Assembly: GCA_965602905.1 (NCBI GenBank)
Contig: CBFCZY010000016.1
Location: forward strand, 2,280-66,279
Source: an uncultured bacterium
Lineage (GTDB): Bacteria; SAR324; XYD2-FULL-50-16
Length of the DNA stretch: 64,000 bases
Direction: 5' to 3'
A program made the translations under genes and the position numbers. The notes under the pieces were generated by a model. It did not search any database and had not been told where the DNA came from. It saw nothing but the letters and a program-made list of their open reading frames with translations. This document shows positions 2,697 to 20,112 of the stretch, piece by piece (position 1 is the first letter of the stretch; each line of letters opens with the position of its first letter).

Positions 2697-3110
2697 ATGA
2701 TGAAAGTACTCATACTTTGCACCGGGAATTCTTGCCGCAGCCAGATGGCAGAGGGAATATTGCAAGCTATAAAAAGCAACTGGCAAGTCTGTTCTGCAGG
2801 TACAAAACCTAGCAACGAGGTTCATCCCTTGGCTGTGATGGTAATGGCCGAGGCGGGTATTGACTTATCCAGTCATAAACCTGAATCAGTTGAAAAGTAT
2901 CTGGATGAAGAGTGGGATCTGATTTGGACTGTCTGTGGAGGAGCAAAGGAAATTTGTCCTGCTTTCTCGGGAATAGTGAAGGAAAGAATTCATATTGGTT
3001 TTGATGACCCTGCAGGATTTACCGGCAGCCCAGAAAATATTCTGGGCGGCTTTAGAAGGGTTCAGGCCCAGATCAACGAAACATGCAGGGAAATTGCGGG
3101 AAAATACTAG
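2697..3110 (+). CDS. arsC: arsenate reductase, LMW-PTP family (thioredoxin-coupled ArsC)
   Basis: MMKVLILCTGNSCRSQMAEG P-loop (CTGNSCRS). The true start is probably the ATG at 2697, preceded by AAGGAA. The track ORF starts at 2619 inside the upstream gene. Confidence 0.8.
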   Translation: MMKVLILCTGNSCRSQMAEGILQAIKSNWQVCSAGTKPSNEVHPLAVMVMAEAGIDLSSHKPESVEKYLDEEWDLIWTVCGGAKEICPAFSGIVKERIHIGFDDPAGFTGSPENILGGFRRVQAQINETCREIAGKY

Positions 3111-14004: not shown

Positions 14005-16995
14005 ATGGTACAATGGATTTGTACATATTATATAGGCGGACTCATGAAACCAATTGATTCAAACCTAGAGAAAAAAGTCCAAAGCTTAGCTCAGGCTTTG
14101 TGGACGGCTACACAAGATAAGGCCCCTGGATTATTTGACCAAGACTTTTGGCAGGGCAAACTATTAGATCTGGTGATGAAAGACCCTGCCTTTAAAGTGG
14201 ATTTTTTTAGATTCATCGATGTGCTGCCCATCTTAAACAACAGCAAAGATTTTACCGAACACGTTGAAGAATACCTGCTGAAACCGGGCCACCAATTGCC
14301 TAAGTTCATCGAGCTCGCCTTGCAGGCTACAGCCTTCAAATTGACTGCACCCTTGGCTTCCAAAGCCGTTAAGGGCAGGGTGAGTGATCTCGCCATGGGC
14401 TTTATTTTAACAGATAAAATGGGTGAGGTTGCAGAGAAACTTTTAGAGCTCAACCATGGAGGTTTGGGGTATACTGTTGATCTATTAGGGGAAGCAACCT
14501 TGAGCCGAGAAGAGGCGCAAAGTTACCAAGAAAAATATCTCCAACTGATTGACCAAATCGCCGAAGCCAGTAAAAGACAACCTGCAAAAGGGGCCTTAAC
14601 GGAGTGGGTACAGGGGTTAGGAAACATGTCCATTAAGGTAACAGCCTTTGCCCCATACTTAGAATCTGCTGATTTAGAGGGGAATCTCGACCGATTGGAA
14701 GAGATGTTATTGCCTGTCTTTCGCAAAGCCAAAAAAGCGGGAATATTTATCAATCTCGATTTGGAACAGTGGCAGTATCACCAACTGACCTATCAACTCT
14801 TTGCAAGGCTGGCTCTGCACCCAGATCTGCAAGATTACCCTAAAATGGGTGTCGTGGTGCAAGCCTATTTGCTTTCCACAAAAGAAGACCTGCACTTTTT
14901 ATTGGGCCTTGCCCAAAAAAGAGGCACTTCCTTTAGTATCAGGTTGGTGAAGGGCGCCTACTGGGACTATGAAGTGATCAACGCCCAAAGCCACGGCCTG
15001 CCTGTTCCTGTATACTTGCAAAAGGCCCAGACGGACGTGAGTTATGAGCAGGCCAGTCAGTTTATATTGGACCATTACAAAGTGCTTCGCCCCGCCTTTG
15101 CCAGTCACAATTTGCGTAGTTTGGCCTTTGCCTTGTCTCTCGCTGAAGAGTTAGAAATACCAAAAAAAAATATAGAGATCCAAATGCTTTATGGCATGGC
15201 GGAACCGACCAGATTGGCTCTGCTAGAGGAAGGCTACCCCATTCGACTCTATACCCCTGTGGGGGATTTGCTTCCAGGGATGTCTTATTTGGTGCGGCGC
15301 CTCTTGGAAAATACCAGTAACGAAGGTTTTCTGCGCCAAAGTTACCAAGAGCATGCAAGCTTGGAAAGCCTGATGCAAAATCCCAAAAATCTAATCCAGC
15401 CCACCAGAGAGGCAACCACAGCGGATGGATTTACCAATTGCCCTGAGCTGGATTTTTCTCTGCCCCAAGTGGCAGGTAAATACCAAAAGGCGCTAAATAA
15501 AGTGCTACAAAGCCTGCCCACCCAAGTACCGGGGGTGATTTCAGGGGAACGATTCTTTCCTAAGAACTTACACTTTACCAAAAGCCCCAACGACCTAAAT
15601 TTAACTGTGGCAGAGCTCAGCTTCTTAGAAGTCAATGAGGCCGAACTTGCCATTGGTGAGGCTACCGAGGCTTGGCCCAGTTGGGCGGAAACCGCTGTGG
15701 CAAAAAGGGCCGATTACCTTGACCGTTTGGCCGATATTTTAGAAGAAAAACGCTATTTCTTTTGCGCTTTAGAGACGGTGGAGGTAGGGAAACCTTGGCC
15801 CGAGGCCGATGGGGATGTAGGCGAGGCCATCGATTTCTGCCGCTACTATGCCCATGTAGCCAGAATCACCTTAGAGCCTGAATCCTTAGGCCAACTGGAT
15901 GGAGAAGAAAACATCCTCTACCATGAGGGCCGAGGGCCAGCAGCCATCATAGCCCCATGGAATTTCCCCTTGGCCATTCTTTGCGGCATGACCACAGCGG
16001 CACTAGTGGCTGGCAACCCTGTCTTGATCAAGCCCAGTTCTAACGCAGCCCTAACAGGGTATCATTTCTTTTTGGCCCTAGAGGAAGCAGGTTTTCCTTC
16101 TGAGGTAATCCACTTTTTACCAGGGGCTGGGAGCAGTATTGGTGGCTATTTGGTTGATCATGTGGCTGTTCCTTTGGTGGCCTTTACGGGAAGTAAGGCT
16201 GTGGGTTTGGGGATTTTAGAGCGAGCAGGTCAGGTGAGGTCAGGGCAGAAACTCATTAAAAAGGTTGTCTGTGAAATGGGTGGAAAGAATGCCATCATTG
16301 TTGATTCTGATGCAGATATGGATCTTGCTGTAGCAGGGGTTATCCAGTCGGCCTTTGGTTTTGCAGGGCAAAAGTGTTCGGCCGCCTCTCGTATCATTTT
16401 GGTTGGCGAGGCCAAAGAATTATTTTTACCAAGGCTTTTGGAATCCTTAGCAAGCATGCCTGTAGCCCCTGCCACTTCGCCCAGTTGCCGCTTAGGGCCT
16501 GTTATCGACCAAGTGGCCTTTGACCGTTTGAAGGCTGTGGAGAAAAATCTAACGGCAGGGGCAGAGTTGCTATTTCGAGGTGAGGTTCCAGAAGGTGGAT
16601 TTTTTATCGCCCCACAAATTTACCAAGTGACCGACCGACAGCACCCCCTGTTACAGCAGGAATTATTTGGCCCTATTACTACAGTGATCCATTGCCCCGA
16701 TTTTGATTCGGCTTTAGATGTTGCCTTAGATAGTGAATATTTTCTAACCGGGGCAATCTATTCGCGTAACCCCGCCCATTTGGAATTGGGGAAGAAGCGC
16801 TTTAAGGTCGGTAATCTATACCTAAACCAAGGTTCCACAGGGGCAAAGGTTCAACGCCAGCCCTTTGGTGGCTTTGGCATGAGCGGGACAGGCACCAAAG
16901 CTGGGGGACGAGATTACTTAAAAAACTTTACCCACCCTAGGGTTGTAACAGAAAATTTACTAAGAAGAGGCTTTTCACCGACCCTACTCCTATAA
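14005..16995 (+). CDS. putA: bifunctional proline dehydrogenase / L-glutamate gamma-semialdehyde (P5C) dehydrogenase PutA (no DNA-binding domain)
   Basis: The N-terminal half is PRODH-like. The C-terminal half is an aldehyde dehydrogenase with EMGGKNAIIV and catalytic Cys in GQKCSA. The real start may be MKPID at 14044. Confidence 0.85.
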   Translation: MVQWICTYYIGGLMKPIDSNLEKKVQSLAQALWTATQDKAPGLFDQDFWQGKLLDLVMKDPAFKVDFFRFIDVLPILNNSKDFTEHVEEYLLKPGHQLPKFIELALQATAFKLTAPLASKAVKGRVSDLAMGFILTDKMGEVAEKLLELNHGGLGYTVDLLGEATLSREEAQSYQEKYLQLIDQIAEASKRQPAKGALTEWVQGLGNMSIKVTAFAPYLESADLEGNLDRLEEMLLPVFRKAKKAGIFINLDLEQWQYHQLTYQLFARLALHPDLQDYPKMGVVVQAYLLSTKEDLHFLLGLAQKRGTSFSIRLVKGAYWDYEVINAQSHGLPVPVYLQKAQTDVSYEQASQFILDHYKVLRPAFASHNLRSLAFALSLAEELEIPKKNIEIQMLYGMAEPTRLALLEEGYPIRLYTPVGDLLPGMSYLVRRLLENTSNEGFLRQSYQEHASLESLMQNPKNLIQPTREATTADGFTNCPELDFSLPQVAGKYQKALNKVLQSLPTQVPGVISGERFFPKNLHFTKSPNDLNLTVAELSFLEVNEAELAIGEATEAWPSWAETAVAKRADYLDRLADILEEKRYFFCALETVEVGKPWPEADGDVGEAIDFCRYYAHVARITLEPESLGQLDGEENILYHEGRGPAAIIAPWNFPLAILCGMTTAALVAGNPVLIKPSSNAALTGYHFFLALEEAGFPSEVIHFLPGAGSSIGGYLVDHVAVPLVAFTGSKAVGLGILERAGQVRSGQKLIKKVVCEMGGKNAIIVDSDADMDLAVAGVIQSAFGFAGQKCSAASRIILVGEAKELFLPRLLESLASMPVAPATSPSCRLGPVIDQVAFDRLKAVEKNLTAGAELLFRGEVPEGGFFIAPQIYQVTDRQHPLLQQELFGPITTVIHCPDFDSALDVALDSEYFLTGAIYSRNPAHLELGKKRFKVGNLYLNQGSTGAKVQRQPFGGFGMSGTGTKAGGRDYLKNFTHPRVVTENLLRRGFSPTLLL

Positions 16996-17002
16996 GGACG
17001 CC

Positions 17003-18217
17003 ATGGAAGACCAAGGAGTTAGTTTTTGCATTGAGGCCCATCTTTTAGACAGCCTAATTTTGTCTGAGCTTTTAGACCAGTTGGCCAGTTTAAAAGTTGA
17101 CTATCAGATCGAAGACTGGAAGATCGGCTCAACCAGAAAAAATGCCAGCAAGATCTGCCTGCGCCTTTGGCCCACAGGGCAGAAAGTTGAATCTTTGAAC
17201 CTACTTATGGCGAACTTTGACGCTGTGAGAGGCGAGCCTGAGCTGAAAGAAGTGGAGGTTGCCTTGTCGCCAAAGGATGGCGTTTACCCAGAAGGTTTTA
17301 TTACCACCAGCAACCAGCCAACAGAAGTTTTTTACAACAACCAATGGCTTACGGTGGCAAGTCTCTGTATGGATGCCGCCATTAAGGTGACAAAGAATAA
17401 GGCCAAGGCGGTAAAGTTTTTTGAAGTTAAAAAGGGAGACCTCATAGTTGTGAGTGATTTTGGTGTGCGAGTTCATCTGCCTAGTTCGTTGGGCAGTAGT
17501 GAAGGCTTTAGCTTTATGGGGTCTAATGTAAGCAGTGAAAAACCTTGGCAGCAGGTGATTACCTCCATTGCCAAAGAAATTAAGTCCCTCAAGGGTAGAA
17601 AAAAAGTATTGCTCGTCGGTGGCCCCGCTATTATCCACACAGGTGCAGCGATTGATTTAACGAATCTGATTGAAGGGGGTTGGGTCAATTTGATTTTTGC
17701 AGGCAACGCTCTGGCAACCCACGACATTGAAGCGGCGCTTTCGGGCACCAGTTTGGGGGTGGATCTAACGACAGGCAAAAATCAACATCTCGGCAACAGG
17801 CACCATTTGCAAGCGATCAATAAAATCCGTCAATGCGGGGGGATTGCTGAGGCTGTGAACCAAGGGGTTTTAAATTCTGGGATCATGCATGCCTGTGTGA
17901 AAGAGGGCGTAGATTTTGTTTTGGCTGGCTCCATCAGGGACGATGGGCCTTTGCCCGAAGTGATTACAGATGCAATTGAGGCCCAAAAGACCATGAAGGC
18001 GAGACTGCCTGAAGTGGGATTGGTTTTAATGGTGGCGACTCTGCTGCACTCTGTCGCTGTGGGGAATTTGCTCCCAGCAGGCATCCCCACTTATATGGTG
18101 GATATTCACTTGGGCGCAGCCACAAAATTGGGCGACCGAGGAACGGGGCAAGCGGAATCTTTGGTGATGGATGCCAAGTCCTTTTTGCATGAATTACATT
18201 TGGCCCTAAACCAATGA
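17003..18217 (+). CDS. conserved enzyme of unknown family, possibly LOR/SDH-type (archaeal-type ornithine cyclodeaminase-like)
   Basis: 404 aa with a Gly-rich VLLVGGPAIIHTGAA motif. It overlaps the next gene by 4 nt (ATGA) and follows putA by 7 nt. Family assignment is from memory and tentative. Confidence 0.45.
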   Translation: MEDQGVSFCIEAHLLDSLILSELLDQLASLKVDYQIEDWKIGSTRKNASKICLRLWPTGQKVESLNLLMANFDAVRGEPELKEVEVALSPKDGVYPEGFITTSNQPTEVFYNNQWLTVASLCMDAAIKVTKNKAKAVKFFEVKKGDLIVVSDFGVRVHLPSSLGSSEGFSFMGSNVSSEKPWQQVITSIAKEIKSLKGRKKVLLVGGPAIIHTGAAIDLTNLIEGGWVNLIFAGNALATHDIEAALSGTSLGVDLTTGKNQHLGNRHHLQAINKIRQCGGIAEAVNQGVLNSGIMHACVKEGVDFVLAGSIRDDGPLPEVITDAIEAQKTMKARLPEVGLVLMVATLLHSVAVGNLLPAGIPTYMVDIHLGAATKLGDRGTGQAESLVMDAKSFLHELHLALNQ

Positions 18218-19014
18218 AAGCCCTGCTTTGCAGCCCCGACTACTTTGGGGTGAGCTACGAGATCAACCCTTGGATGCATGTGCAAACCCAGCCTGATGGA
18301 GCACTGGCAATGACCCAGTGGCGGGCACTTTGCGAGGCCTTGCAAGGTTTGGGGGTGACTTTAGAATTGATTGCGCCTGTGAAAGGCCAACCAGATATGG
18401 TTTTTACTGCCAACGGGGGTTTGGTTAAGGGGTTAGGTGGAGCCGCCCAAGTAGTACTGCCAAACTTTCGGCACCCAGAAAGGCAAGGGGAAAGGTCAGC
18501 CTTTGCAGCATGGTTTGAAGCCTGCGGCTATCAAACCCAGAGTTTGCCTGCAAACTACCCCTTTGAGGGGGAGGGAGATGCGCTCTTTTGTGGGCAACGA
18601 TTATTTACAGGCTACCCTGTTCGCACTCATCTCGGCGCCCATAGGCAACTGGGGGAAATTTTTGACTGTGAAGTCATTTCTTTAATGTTGGTAAACCCTG
18701 CTTTTTACCACTTGGATACTTGCTTTTTTCCCATTAATCCTGAACTTGCTGTCTATTACCCTAAAGCCTTTGATGACCATGGTATCAAACTAATAAAAAC
18801 CTACTTTAAAGAAACCATTGCTCTGGCGGATACAGATGCAGCGGCCTTTTGTTGTAACGGCGTAGCCGTGGGGCAAAATTTGATTCTGCCTCAAGGTTCA
18901 GAGGAGTTGAAAGGGCAATTGGAAGCCTTAGGATTTAAGGTCACCTATCTAAATTTTAGTGAATTTATCAAGGCTGGCGGTGCGGCAAAATGCCTTACCC
19001 TCTGGCTAGAGTAA
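18214..19014 (+). CDS. amidinotransferase-superfamily hydrolase (DDAH / citrullinase CtlX-like)
   Basis: 266 aa. The N-terminus MKALLCSPDYFGVSYEINPWM and the length fit the DDAH/arginine deiminase-like pentein fold. A conserved Cys lies near the C-terminus (GGAAKCLTL). Confidence 0.6.
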   Translation: MKALLCSPDYFGVSYEINPWMHVQTQPDGALAMTQWRALCEALQGLGVTLELIAPVKGQPDMVFTANGGLVKGLGGAAQVVLPNFRHPERQGERSAFAAWFEACGYQTQSLPANYPFEGEGDALFCGQRLFTGYPVRTHLGAHRQLGEIFDCEVISLMLVNPAFYHLDTCFFPINPELAVYYPKAFDDHGIKLIKTYFKETIALADTDAAAFCCNGVAVGQNLILPQGSEELKGQLEALGFKVTYLNFSEFIKAGGAAKCLTLWLE

Positions 19015-19034
19015 GACAAATTAGGAGCCTTAAG

Positions 19035-19781
19035 CTACTTAAAAGAAGCCAAAAGTTGGCTGTTTTTGGGGTGCTTGCCTAGGAGTTCGATCAACTTTTC
19101 AATGGCACCTCGATCATTTTCTTTTCCCAAGGTGCGGTAAAGAGTATTGAGTTGTTCATATTCTTCAGGCTCAAATAAAAGCTCGGCTCTGCGAGTAGCA
19201 CTTTTCAACACATCAATTGCAGGGAAAAGACCATTTTGCGCCAGTTTTTTAGAGAGTACCAATTCCATGTTTCCTGTGCCCTTGAATTCTTCAAAGATCA
19301 CTGTGTCCATGGCGCTTCCTGTATCCACTAAAATGGTAGCGATAATGGTGATGGAACCTGAATCTTCAACGTTGCGAGCAGCACCAAAAATTCGACGAGG
19401 GATTTCCATAGCCCCTGCGCCCATACCACCTGACATGGTTTTTCCACCACTGCGGTGATTGGTGTTGTGCACCCTTGCCAAGCGAGTCAAGGAATCGAGC
19501 AGGATCATTACATCATGCCCTTCTGCGGCCTCTTTGAAGGCCTTAGATATTACTTGGTCAGCCACTTTAATATGTTCTTCTTGGCCTTGGTCCATTGAAG
19601 AAGAGTAGACTTCTGCGGTCACGCCACGTTTAAAATCCGTTACCTCTTCTGGTCTCTCATCAACCAGTAGGCAGAAGACTTTCATGTCGGGGTGGCCTTC
19701 TGTGACAGCCTTACAAATATTCTTTAAAAATGTCGTTTTTCCAGAGCCTGGTGAGGACACAACCAGTGCACGTTGACCCAT
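19035..19781 (-). CDS. rho: transcription termination factor Rho, ATPase core (ORF as given by first ATG; homology continues upstream to 20042 without a canonical start)
   Basis: Walker A SSPGSGKTT, the LLVDERPEEVTDF Q-loop region, LLDSLTRLARVHN and FGAARNVEDSGSITIIATILVDTGS match Rho closely. The ATG at 19781 is the Met inside the conserved PIG-M-GQR motif. Confidence 0.8.
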   Translation of the reverse strand: MGQRALVVSSPGSGKTTFLKNICKAVTEGHPDMKVFCLLVDERPEEVTDFKRGVTAEVYSSSMDQGQEEHIKVADQVISKAFKEAAEGHDVMILLDSLTRLARVHNTNHRSGGKTMSGGMGAGAMEIPRRIFGAARNVEDSGSITIIATILVDTGSAMDTVIFEEFKGTGNMELVLSKKLAQNGLFPAIDVLKSATRRAELLFEPEEYEQLNTLYRTLGKENDRGAIEKLIELLGKHPKNSQLLASFK

Positions 19782-20112
19782 ACCGATGGGGCAAATTAGA
19801 TCCAGCGCACGGACAGATAAATCATCACTACCCTTTTCTAAGATAATACGAGGGTAGGGGTTGATAGCCGTCCCGCCTAAAAACCGTTTTTCTTCTATGG
19901 ATTGACTTGGTTTTTTTGGGGCGTTGCCATGTTGGGAGCGTTGCTGCGGTCTTCGTTGCTGGCTTTTGCCTTGGGGCTTTGTGCCTTCTGGTCTTTTGCG
20001 TCTATGTTGGATGGGGTCTCGTGGAAAATTCGTTTTGGACAGTTAATCTTTAGGCCATTCTATGAAGAAGCTGGGCTGGTGTCAAGCAACCCCTTTGCAG
20101 CTCCTTTGCCCC

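Follow-up and report, generated by a model that had tools for sequence, protein, structure and literature searches.

The window analyzed here comprises 64,000 nucleotides of contig CBFCZY010000016.1 (positions 2,280 to 66,279 of the forward strand) from assembly GCA_965602905.1 of an uncultured SAR324 bacterium. Judged from its sequence, the minus-strand locus at 19035..20045 of this window is an intact and conserved gene for a short version of Rho, the transcription termination factor, in which the Rho N-terminal domain is replaced by a short basic tail. The product is probably a functional short Rho of 325 residues, acting as a RecA-type ring ATPase and RNA translocase, expressed from its own sigma-70 promoter and an AUC start codon, and bearing the basic tail. 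This proposal builds on observed features of the locus, namely its domain architecture, the conservation of its catalytic residues, purifying selection, a clade of relatives in multiple phyla, and the conservation of the ATC codon together with its context.

On the minus strand, the frame runs without interruption between TAA at 20043..20045 and the stop codon TAG at 19035..19037, corresponding to 335 sense codons. A tblastn search with E. coli Rho aligned residues 123-417 to 19913..19038 (46% identity, E 5e-79) and found no match to the Rho N-terminal domain anywhere in the 64-kb window. The aligned part contains the linker and the C-terminal RecA-type ATPase/translocase domain of Rho, placed at 19038..19898 on the minus strand. 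In Pfam, the generic ATPase domain PF00006 was the sole match of the window protein; there was no match at E <= 1 to PF07497, the OB-fold, cold-shock-like primary RNA-binding domain, and none to PF07498, the N-terminal helix bundle, with only 38 residues preceding the linker. The NCBIfam model PRK09376 matched the protein over model positions 123-412 only. The tract preceding the Rho homology has a net charge of +10 over 43 residues. Between the upstream stop and the Met codon at 19781, none of the 87 codons is ATG, GTG, or TTG, and the upstream gene ends at 20113, leaving a 70-nt gap before the short rho frame. A preliminary description of this DNA had claimed the extent of the frame with its stops, Rho homology confined to the C-terminal part with the N-terminal RNA-binding domain missing, a basic tract ahead of the homology, the lack of canonical start codons before Met 19781, and a gap too small to hide an N-terminal domain nearby. 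All of these claims were borne out, the missing domain by tblastn, Pfam, and NCBIfam alike, and the basic tract is additionally predicted to be disordered.

The window protein is unmistakably derived from Rho. It scored 359 bits against PRK09376, above the cut-off of 315, and 337 bits against TIGR00767, below the cut-off of 509, and its best sequence matches in the PDB were all Rho (E 2e-78). Scores against the FliI and type III secretion ATPase families reached no more than 96 bits, where the cut-offs are 380-750, so the protein is not a member of these families, and an assignment as a defense-system ATPase was rejected because PADLOC gave a trivial P-loop match only. In the AlphaFold model (predicted template modeling score 0.78), the predicted local distance difference test (pLDDT) values were about 90 in the core and below 50 for residues 1-33. 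The model superposed on solved Rho structures with a root-mean-square deviation of 1.9 A over 283 columns (template modeling score 0.82).

The Walker A and B motifs, the catalytic Glu211 and Arg212, and the Arg366 finger are all present in the window protein. In addition, K184, T185, E211, R212, D265, R269, and R366 (E. coli numbering) are conserved in the window protein and invariant in 132 related short sequences. The Walker A/P-loop motif GSGKTT is encoded at 19731..19748 on the minus strand and carries Gly where E. coli Rho has K181; at this position, Gly was found in 100% of the 132 short forms and Lys in 84% of canonical sequences. The Q-loop is also present, with equivalents of K283 and S286.

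The region at 19899..20009 (minus strand) encodes the tail, QHRRKRPEGTKPQGKSQQRRPQQRSQHGNAPKKPSQS, which takes the place of the N-terminal domain of Rho. The encoded tail of about 38 aa is rich in Arg, Lys, Gln, and Pro, and its predicted disorder corresponds to the low pLDDT of residues 1-33. Equivalent tails rich in R, S, P, and Q were identified in 127 family members, with a median length of 33 aa, a median net charge of +6, and an overall composition of 19% R, 12% S, 11% P, and 7% Q.

Conservation of the locus and the short Rho clade

Taken alone, the missing canonical start and N-terminal domain could be read as signs of a decaying rho pseudogene or of an assembly or homopolymer artifact, and one of the contigs that repeat the locus (L001) has a coverage of only 4.6x. 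However, L001 and L168, two ENA metagenome contigs from different samples, are 100% identical over the intergenic region, the tail-coding region, and a run of seven A residues (A7), making three identical assemblies. An ortholog locus in the SAR324 metagenome-assembled genome (MAG) GCA_033791585.1 (L002) encodes a protein with 79% identity and has the same architecture, likewise without ATG, GTG, or TTG ahead of the conserved core; its downstream neighbors are also those of the window (DDAH-like, ArgZ-like, and PutA). Between the two genes, nonsynonymous (dN) and synonymous (dS) divergence were 0.086 and 1.43 in the core (dN/dS ~0.06) and 0.40 and 2.1 in the tail (dN/dS ~0.19), synonymous divergence being saturated (dS 1.4-2.1). 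The tails differ by indels of 6 and 30 nt, both multiples of three. The low dN/dS values and the in-frame indels indicate that the gene, including its tail, is translated and under purifying selection. With the same architecture in the ortholog and about 140 related loci, intact catalytic residues, and a confident fold prediction, the reading as a pseudogene or artifact is effectively already refuted, and we assign it a negligible probability.

These results also separate the options that the preliminary description had offered for the locus. A disrupted gene is refuted by the dN/dS values of core and tail and the intact catalytic residues, and an assembly error by the three identical assemblies and the ortholog with the same architecture. 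The two others, a non-canonical start, with ATC among the codons named, and an N-terminally remodeled Rho with a basic tail, gained support jointly, the former from the conservation of the ATC described below. As a possible refutation, it had named orthologs whose gene at this locus encodes the usual N-terminal domain; such a domain is missing from every one of about 140 related loci.

Thousands of relatives emerged from a protein search; the best 120 have 284-375 aa, are 67-82% identical to the window protein, and match PF00006 alone. These best 120 are named 'transcription termination factor Rho', and their hosts are SAR324, Nitrospirota/Thermodesulfovibrionia, and members of the PVC group. 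Comparable loci were found in GTDB species genomes (56 loci) and JGI metagenomes (80 loci), these scans yielding MAGs of Nitrospirota, Omnitrophota, Planctomycetales, and Desulfococcaceae, and the hosts of the clade comprise SAR324, Nitrospirota, Omnitrophota, Planctomycetota, and Desulfobacterota. Every locus with a readable upstream frame encodes a short tail followed by the ATPase core, and none of the 38 clade members scanned matched PF07497 or PF07498. A split rho gene was considered and rejected, as tblastn with the N-terminal domain of E. coli Rho and three other N-terminal domains gave no match in the window or in the approximately 140 loci with flanks of 3-4 kb. Clustering of the neighboring open reading frames (ORFs) of 139 loci revealed no conserved partner gene; the commonest real neighbors, an ABC-type ATPase ORF and a cluster including the sensor kinase of the window, each occurred in fewer than 35 of these loci.

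A neighbor-joining tree built on the shared domain grouped all 132 short sequences in one clade on a stem of 0.27. Short and canonical Rho had a median identity of 46%, compared with 59% among canonical Rho of different phyla and 67% among members of the short clade. The clade was defined as proteins of ~300-340 aa consisting of a basic disordered tail, a ..E.KF..GT...P.PRI.LE.GS.. linker, and the Rho ATPase domain, with Q189K, V206C, M219F, Y274H, and K181G as signature substitutions. Together with these five, the clade-fixed substitutions are A192C, T231S, I267L, A273V, and K298R. The window protein has this organization, shares 67-82% identity with the members, and lies inside the monophyletic clade. 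The identity between SAR324 and Nitrospirota short proteins (75-79%) exceeds the cross-phylum identity of canonical Rho (median 59%), which suggests horizontal spread of an accessory gene.

Canonical Rho of the E. coli type (TIGR00767 / PRK09376; PDB 3ICE, 5JJI, and 8Q3N) has the same RecA-type C-terminal domain and C-terminal helical region. Compared with it, the window protein lacks residues 1-122, that is, the helix bundle PF07498 and the OB-fold PF07497, and is set apart by the change of P-loop K181 to Gly (in the short clade), the change of R-loop K326 to Ala (in the subclade of the window), and the long separating branch. The short Rho proteins called Type 4 or Group B, the latter reportedly treated by D'Heygere et al. 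in 2013, are likewise shortened, are often present as a second copy, and have a conserved ATPase domain. In the survey of Moreira et al. 2024 (PMC11347177), Type 4 is the shortest class of Rho and lacks the helix bundle but keeps the OB-fold RNA-binding domain, whereas the window protein misses the OB-fold as well as the helix bundle. The Type 4 or Group B class probably also covers NCBIfam NF041509 ('paralog_Rho2, short form'), against which the window protein scored 304.5 bits, below the cut-off of 628 and lower than its scores against the canonical Rho models. Because the OB-fold and helix bundle are missing and the NF041509 score is low, the window protein fails the domain-based tests for canonical, Type 4, and Rho2 proteins. 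The same survey defines a functional Rho by the RNA-binding and ATPase domains together and mentions single-domain 'Rho-like' sequences for 421 species (PMC11347177); under these definitions, the window protein is single-domain 'Rho-like' and falls outside 'functional Rho'. Our literature search found no paper characterizing this clade, and nothing specific on a Rho without the N-terminal domain.

Predicted promoter, leader, and start codon

The gene is preceded by a predicted sigma-70 promoter on the minus strand, with the -35 hexamer TTGACA at 20080..20085 and the -10 hexamer TAGAAT at 20057..20062. This site, TTGACA-17-TAGAAT (20085..20057), has 11 of 12 sigma-70 consensus matches and is the best site in 18900..20300, and the SAR324 ortholog has TTGACG-18-TAGTAT at the equivalent place. 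Transcription from this promoter would start near 20050, given the usual spacing of ~7 nt, so that the in-frame TAA should lie inside the leader with no upstream coding sequence available. The resulting putative 5' untranslated leader of ~38 nt (20013..20050, minus strand) is A/C-rich and holds the TAA at 20043..20045 and a non-conserved CTG at 20040..20042. No RNA structure was predicted over the leader or start codon (fold of 20051..19960, z = -0.23), and Rfam at gathering thresholds and ARAGORN detected no known leader RNA, riboswitch, or tRNA in the 64 kb.

The likely initiation codon is ATC (AUC) at 20010..20012 on the minus strand, ~38 nt 3' of the predicted promoter, which would give a product of 325 aa. 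The table-11 start codons in the open frame are CTG 20042, ATC 20012, and ATA 19898 in the window, and ATC alone in the SAR324 ortholog. The ATC lies within GAGACCCCATCCAA; in the promoter-to-tail alignment of 226 columns, where overall identity is 48%, no other stretch is 14/14-identical. Additionally, the NCBI annotation of the ortholog record (MDX2469267.1, P0001) begins at the equivalent ATC (L002:6001). The family alignment places the ATC of the window in the column where most members have their ATG, and the main Nitrospirota clade has TAAGGAG-N5-ATG with the same geometry. A second, Nitrospirota-like subclade (L083/84, L163-L167; P0010, P0052, P0053, P0058, P0061, and P0076) has a conserved TAAGGAG-N5-ATC-AAA-AAC-AGA-AAA-AAG; the next candidate start varies among lineages (ATG, GTG, GTA, or AGG), so that ATC alone is common to this subclade. 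This pattern points to ATC initiation behind a strong Shine-Dalgarno sequence in the second subclade, by independent or shared use. We take ATC as the probable start in the window on the grounds of the 14-mer shared with the SAR324 ortholog, the NCBI annotation, the promoter, and the second subclade.

Two observations weigh against this assignment. The SAR324 element upstream of the ATC is GAG only, which is weakly Shine-Dalgarno-like, and the ribosome-binding site does not discriminate between candidates because fewer than half of the window genes have a 4-mer Shine-Dalgarno sequence. The second comes from a third SAR324-like locus (L101), in which the frame is open upstream to an in-frame ATG 42 codons before the ATC, and the ATC is therefore perhaps an ordinary Ile codon there. 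In that locus (JGI Ga0316204_10000586, 2875..3001), a weak promoter-like site precedes the upstream ATG by 7 nt, and the gene may encode a non-basic N-terminal protein extension or be transcribed as a leaderless mRNA.

A start elsewhere, namely at CTG 20040..20042, at ATG 19781, or at ATG 19930 followed by a -1 frameshift that would yield a tail-less protein, is very unlikely. The CTG is a table-11 start inside the predicted transcript, but it lies just ~8 nt from the predicted 5' end and is missing from both L002 and L101. The first canonical ATG (19779..19781, minus strand) encodes the Met of PIGMGQR, an internal residue taken wrongly as the start by gene callers, and Prodigal-type callers yield products of 248 and 216 aa. 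However, the 77 codons before this ATG are strongly conserved as protein; they contain the segment that aligns with E. coli Rho 123-172 and are close to identical in the SAR324 ortholog. The out-of-frame ATG at 19928..19930 is followed by the A7 run (19911..19917) with the heptamer A_AAA_AAC, the whole element spanning 19911..19930 on the minus strand. The heptamer is of the classical slippery type and is so placed that a slip would rejoin the Rho frame, and the ATG and A7 run are identical in the three assemblies. The -1 frameshift was nevertheless rejected because neither the ATG nor the A7 run is found in L002 or L101, and the tail is in frame and constrained, its indels being multiples of three.

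Standard gene callers cut these genes to 216-298 aa in public databases. Among the public records, P0002 has 248 aa, P0121 has 216 aa, and P0052, P0053, P0058, P0061, and P0076 have 284-296 aa. Because callers that ignore ATC truncate the genes at an internal Met or Val, the public lengths and domain statistics of the short Rho family are unreliable. The family is also under-counted and mis-annotated, since the truncation by callers is compounded by domain surveys that class such proteins as non-functional 'Rho-like'. An exact-sequence look-up of the ATC- or CTG-initiated product gave no database entry.

Near-cognate starts are represented in E. coli by infC and pcnB (AUU/AUC genes), which, like the short rho gene, have no in-frame AUG, GUG, or UUG and a conserved codon of the AUH class. 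Start codons of this class are discriminated against by initiation factor 3 (IF3), implying low or IF3-responsive expression. The short rho gene shares with them the lack of a canonical start before the conserved coding sequence and the retention of a near-cognate codon in orthologs; it differs in that its codon is AUC, not AUU, and that this start is predicted from the DNA alone. In E. coli, AUC initiates with methionine at 1-2% of the AUG level, and just two non-canonical starts, both AUU, have been confirmed (bioRxiv 10.1101/063800). The ATC of short rho is one of very few candidates for a near-cognate start maintained by selection in bacteria. Translation would begin from the AUC on a short, unstructured leader with the weak GAG element, and expression should be low because of both the start codon and this weak Shine-Dalgarno-like element.

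The RNA of the leader and tail-coding region, ~150-200 nt in length, is unstructured, C-rich, and G-poor, resembling a Rho utilization (rut) site. It contains 32% C versus 16% G in the window (19900..20051, minus strand) and 33% versus 12% in the SAR324 ortholog (L002 5953..6150); C and G make up 22% and 24%, respectively, of the remaining short rho gene. As a speculation, poor translation from the AUC could expose this rut-like RNA and result in Rho-dependent autoregulation or attenuation.

Proposed function of the short Rho

Models of Rho termination begin with the N-terminal primary site, which reads C-rich rut RNA and also promotes ring closure. A multi-phylum clade that is under selection, has dropped the N-terminal domain, and has kept every catalytic residue represents a natural test both of the motor without this domain and of a possible replacement of its role by basic disordered tails or by NusG.

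The Rho C-terminal domain forms a hexameric ring with the ATPase sites and a central secondary RNA site. We infer from the sequence features that the short Rho would also assemble into a hexamer, with RNA capture by its tails. Following transcription from the predicted promoter (20085..20057), the product would carry, in the predicted hexamer, six basic tails on the RNA-entry face, where the primary RNA-binding sites would otherwise sit. These six disordered tails would capture RNA avidly without specificity for the YC dinucleotides of rut sites, and the captured RNA would be fed to the central secondary site for ATP-driven translocation. Similar Arg-rich, low-complexity disordered segments on the RNA-entry face occur in the N-terminal insertion domain of M. 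tuberculosis Rho and in the insertion regions of Bacteroides Rho (Type 2), and are thought to add non-specific RNA affinity. The Type 2 disordered region is added to an intact primary site, whereas the tail of the window protein replaces that site.

An occupied primary site normally promotes closure of the ring in canonical Rho. In the short Rho, closure might depend on the KOW domain of NusG. According to a review, NusG is able to close the ring of Rho on RNAs that lack rut features (PMC7819879, citing Lawson et al. 2018).

Two substitutions speak against this mechanism. The R-loop residue K326, which contacts RNA in E. coli Rho, is Ala in the window protein and in aligned SAR324/Nitrospirota relatives, and R353 is Gly in the window protein and the SAR324 ortholog (L002), with Arg at this position in 98% of the short clade. 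RNA translocation may be altered because of these two changes. The change of K326 to Ala was also considered as a family-defining feature and rejected, as position 326 is Arg in 68% of the short clade and is variable in the canonical sample itself.

The conserved weak start codon would lead to low or conditional synthesis. The short Rho would function alongside a canonical copy, as a second Rho with different targets or different regulation, as suggested by the cross-phylum identity within the clade (75-79%), which is higher than the canonical median of 59%, together with a survey result. Table 2 of that survey, covering 2,730 complete genomes, places species without a domain-complete Rho only in Actinomycetota, Bacillota, Cyanobacteriota, Mycoplasmatota, and Myxococcota (PMC11347177), and none of these five phyla is among the host phyla of the short clade.

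The same evidence bears on the reading that the protein is the sole Rho of its organism. On this reading, SAR324 and perhaps Omnitrophota would terminate transcription with no primary site, through ring closure by NusG-KOW and non-specific contacts between tail and RNA. A gene standing alone with its own promoter has a housekeeping-like appearance, and the strong purifying selection, the lack of a conserved partner gene, and the reported ability of NusG to close the ring when the RNA has no rut features (PMC7819879, citing Lawson et al. 2018) would agree with this role. However, the survey table confines species without a domain-complete Rho to five other phyla (PMC11347177), a start codon of 1-2% efficiency would be odd for an essential and abundant factor, and the 75-79% identity between SAR324 and Nitrospirota is not predicted by vertical inheritance of a core gene. 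A sole-Rho role is therefore rather improbable; if it were true in some lineages (SAR324, Omnitrophota), OB-fold rut recognition would not be universal for factor-dependent termination.

The low synthesis expected from the AUC also raises the possibility of a regulatory subunit, which would form hetero-hexamers with canonical Rho that have fewer primary RNA-binding sites, and would tune rut dependence or act as a partly dominant negative. Its level would be coupled to the state of translation initiation, as for infC, since IF3 discriminates against AUC. Conservation of the poor start in two subclades implies that low or conditional expression has been selected, the C-terminal domain that forms the ring is kept with all catalytic residues, and the high cross-phylum identity suggests an accessory, transferable gene; moreover, section 27 of the survey suggests hetero-hexamers for other species with two Rho proteins (PMC11347177). 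On the other hand, this role presupposes a hypothetical canonical rho in the same genome, and the 46% identity to canonical C-terminal domains with the fixed Q189K, V206C, M219F, and Y274H, among others, may prevent co-assembly. Most members of the family have ATG with a strong Shine-Dalgarno sequence, which means that low expression is not family-wide. We consider the regulatory subunit unlikely, and favor the functional short Rho motor described above.

A broader form of the proposal is conceivable, if doubtful. Proteins of this clade would be widespread Rho motors free of the rut-binding domain and equipped with six Arg-rich tails, gated by AUC in SAR324 and the Nitrospirota-like subclade with a level that follows IF3 and the state of translation initiation, and would act as an alternative terminator responsive to stress or growth, or as a subunit that modulates Rho.

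Neighboring features

Directly upstream of the short rho gene, a 208-aa ORF (20113..20739, minus strand) has no Pfam match and contains hydrophobic segments at both ends. This ORF is kept in the near-identical assemblies, and the SAR324 ortholog locus has a HAD hydrolase gene instead. At the other end of the gene, a consensus scan identified the hairpin AGCCAA-CTT-TTGGCT, with T-runs on both strands, at 19047..19061. The hairpin overlaps the final codons of short rho, at a distance of 20-30 nt from where the convergent DDAH-like gene (18214..19014) ends, and it is possibly a bidirectional intrinsic terminator for these two convergent genes. The cluster convergent with short rho (14005..19014, plus strand) consists of genes for PutA (proline dehydrogenase/aldehyde dehydrogenase), an ArgZ-like arginine dihydrolase, and a DDAH-like amidinotransferase. 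This cluster is syntenic in the SAR324 MAG (L002 7164..12125), and the opposite flank of rho differs between the two genomes.

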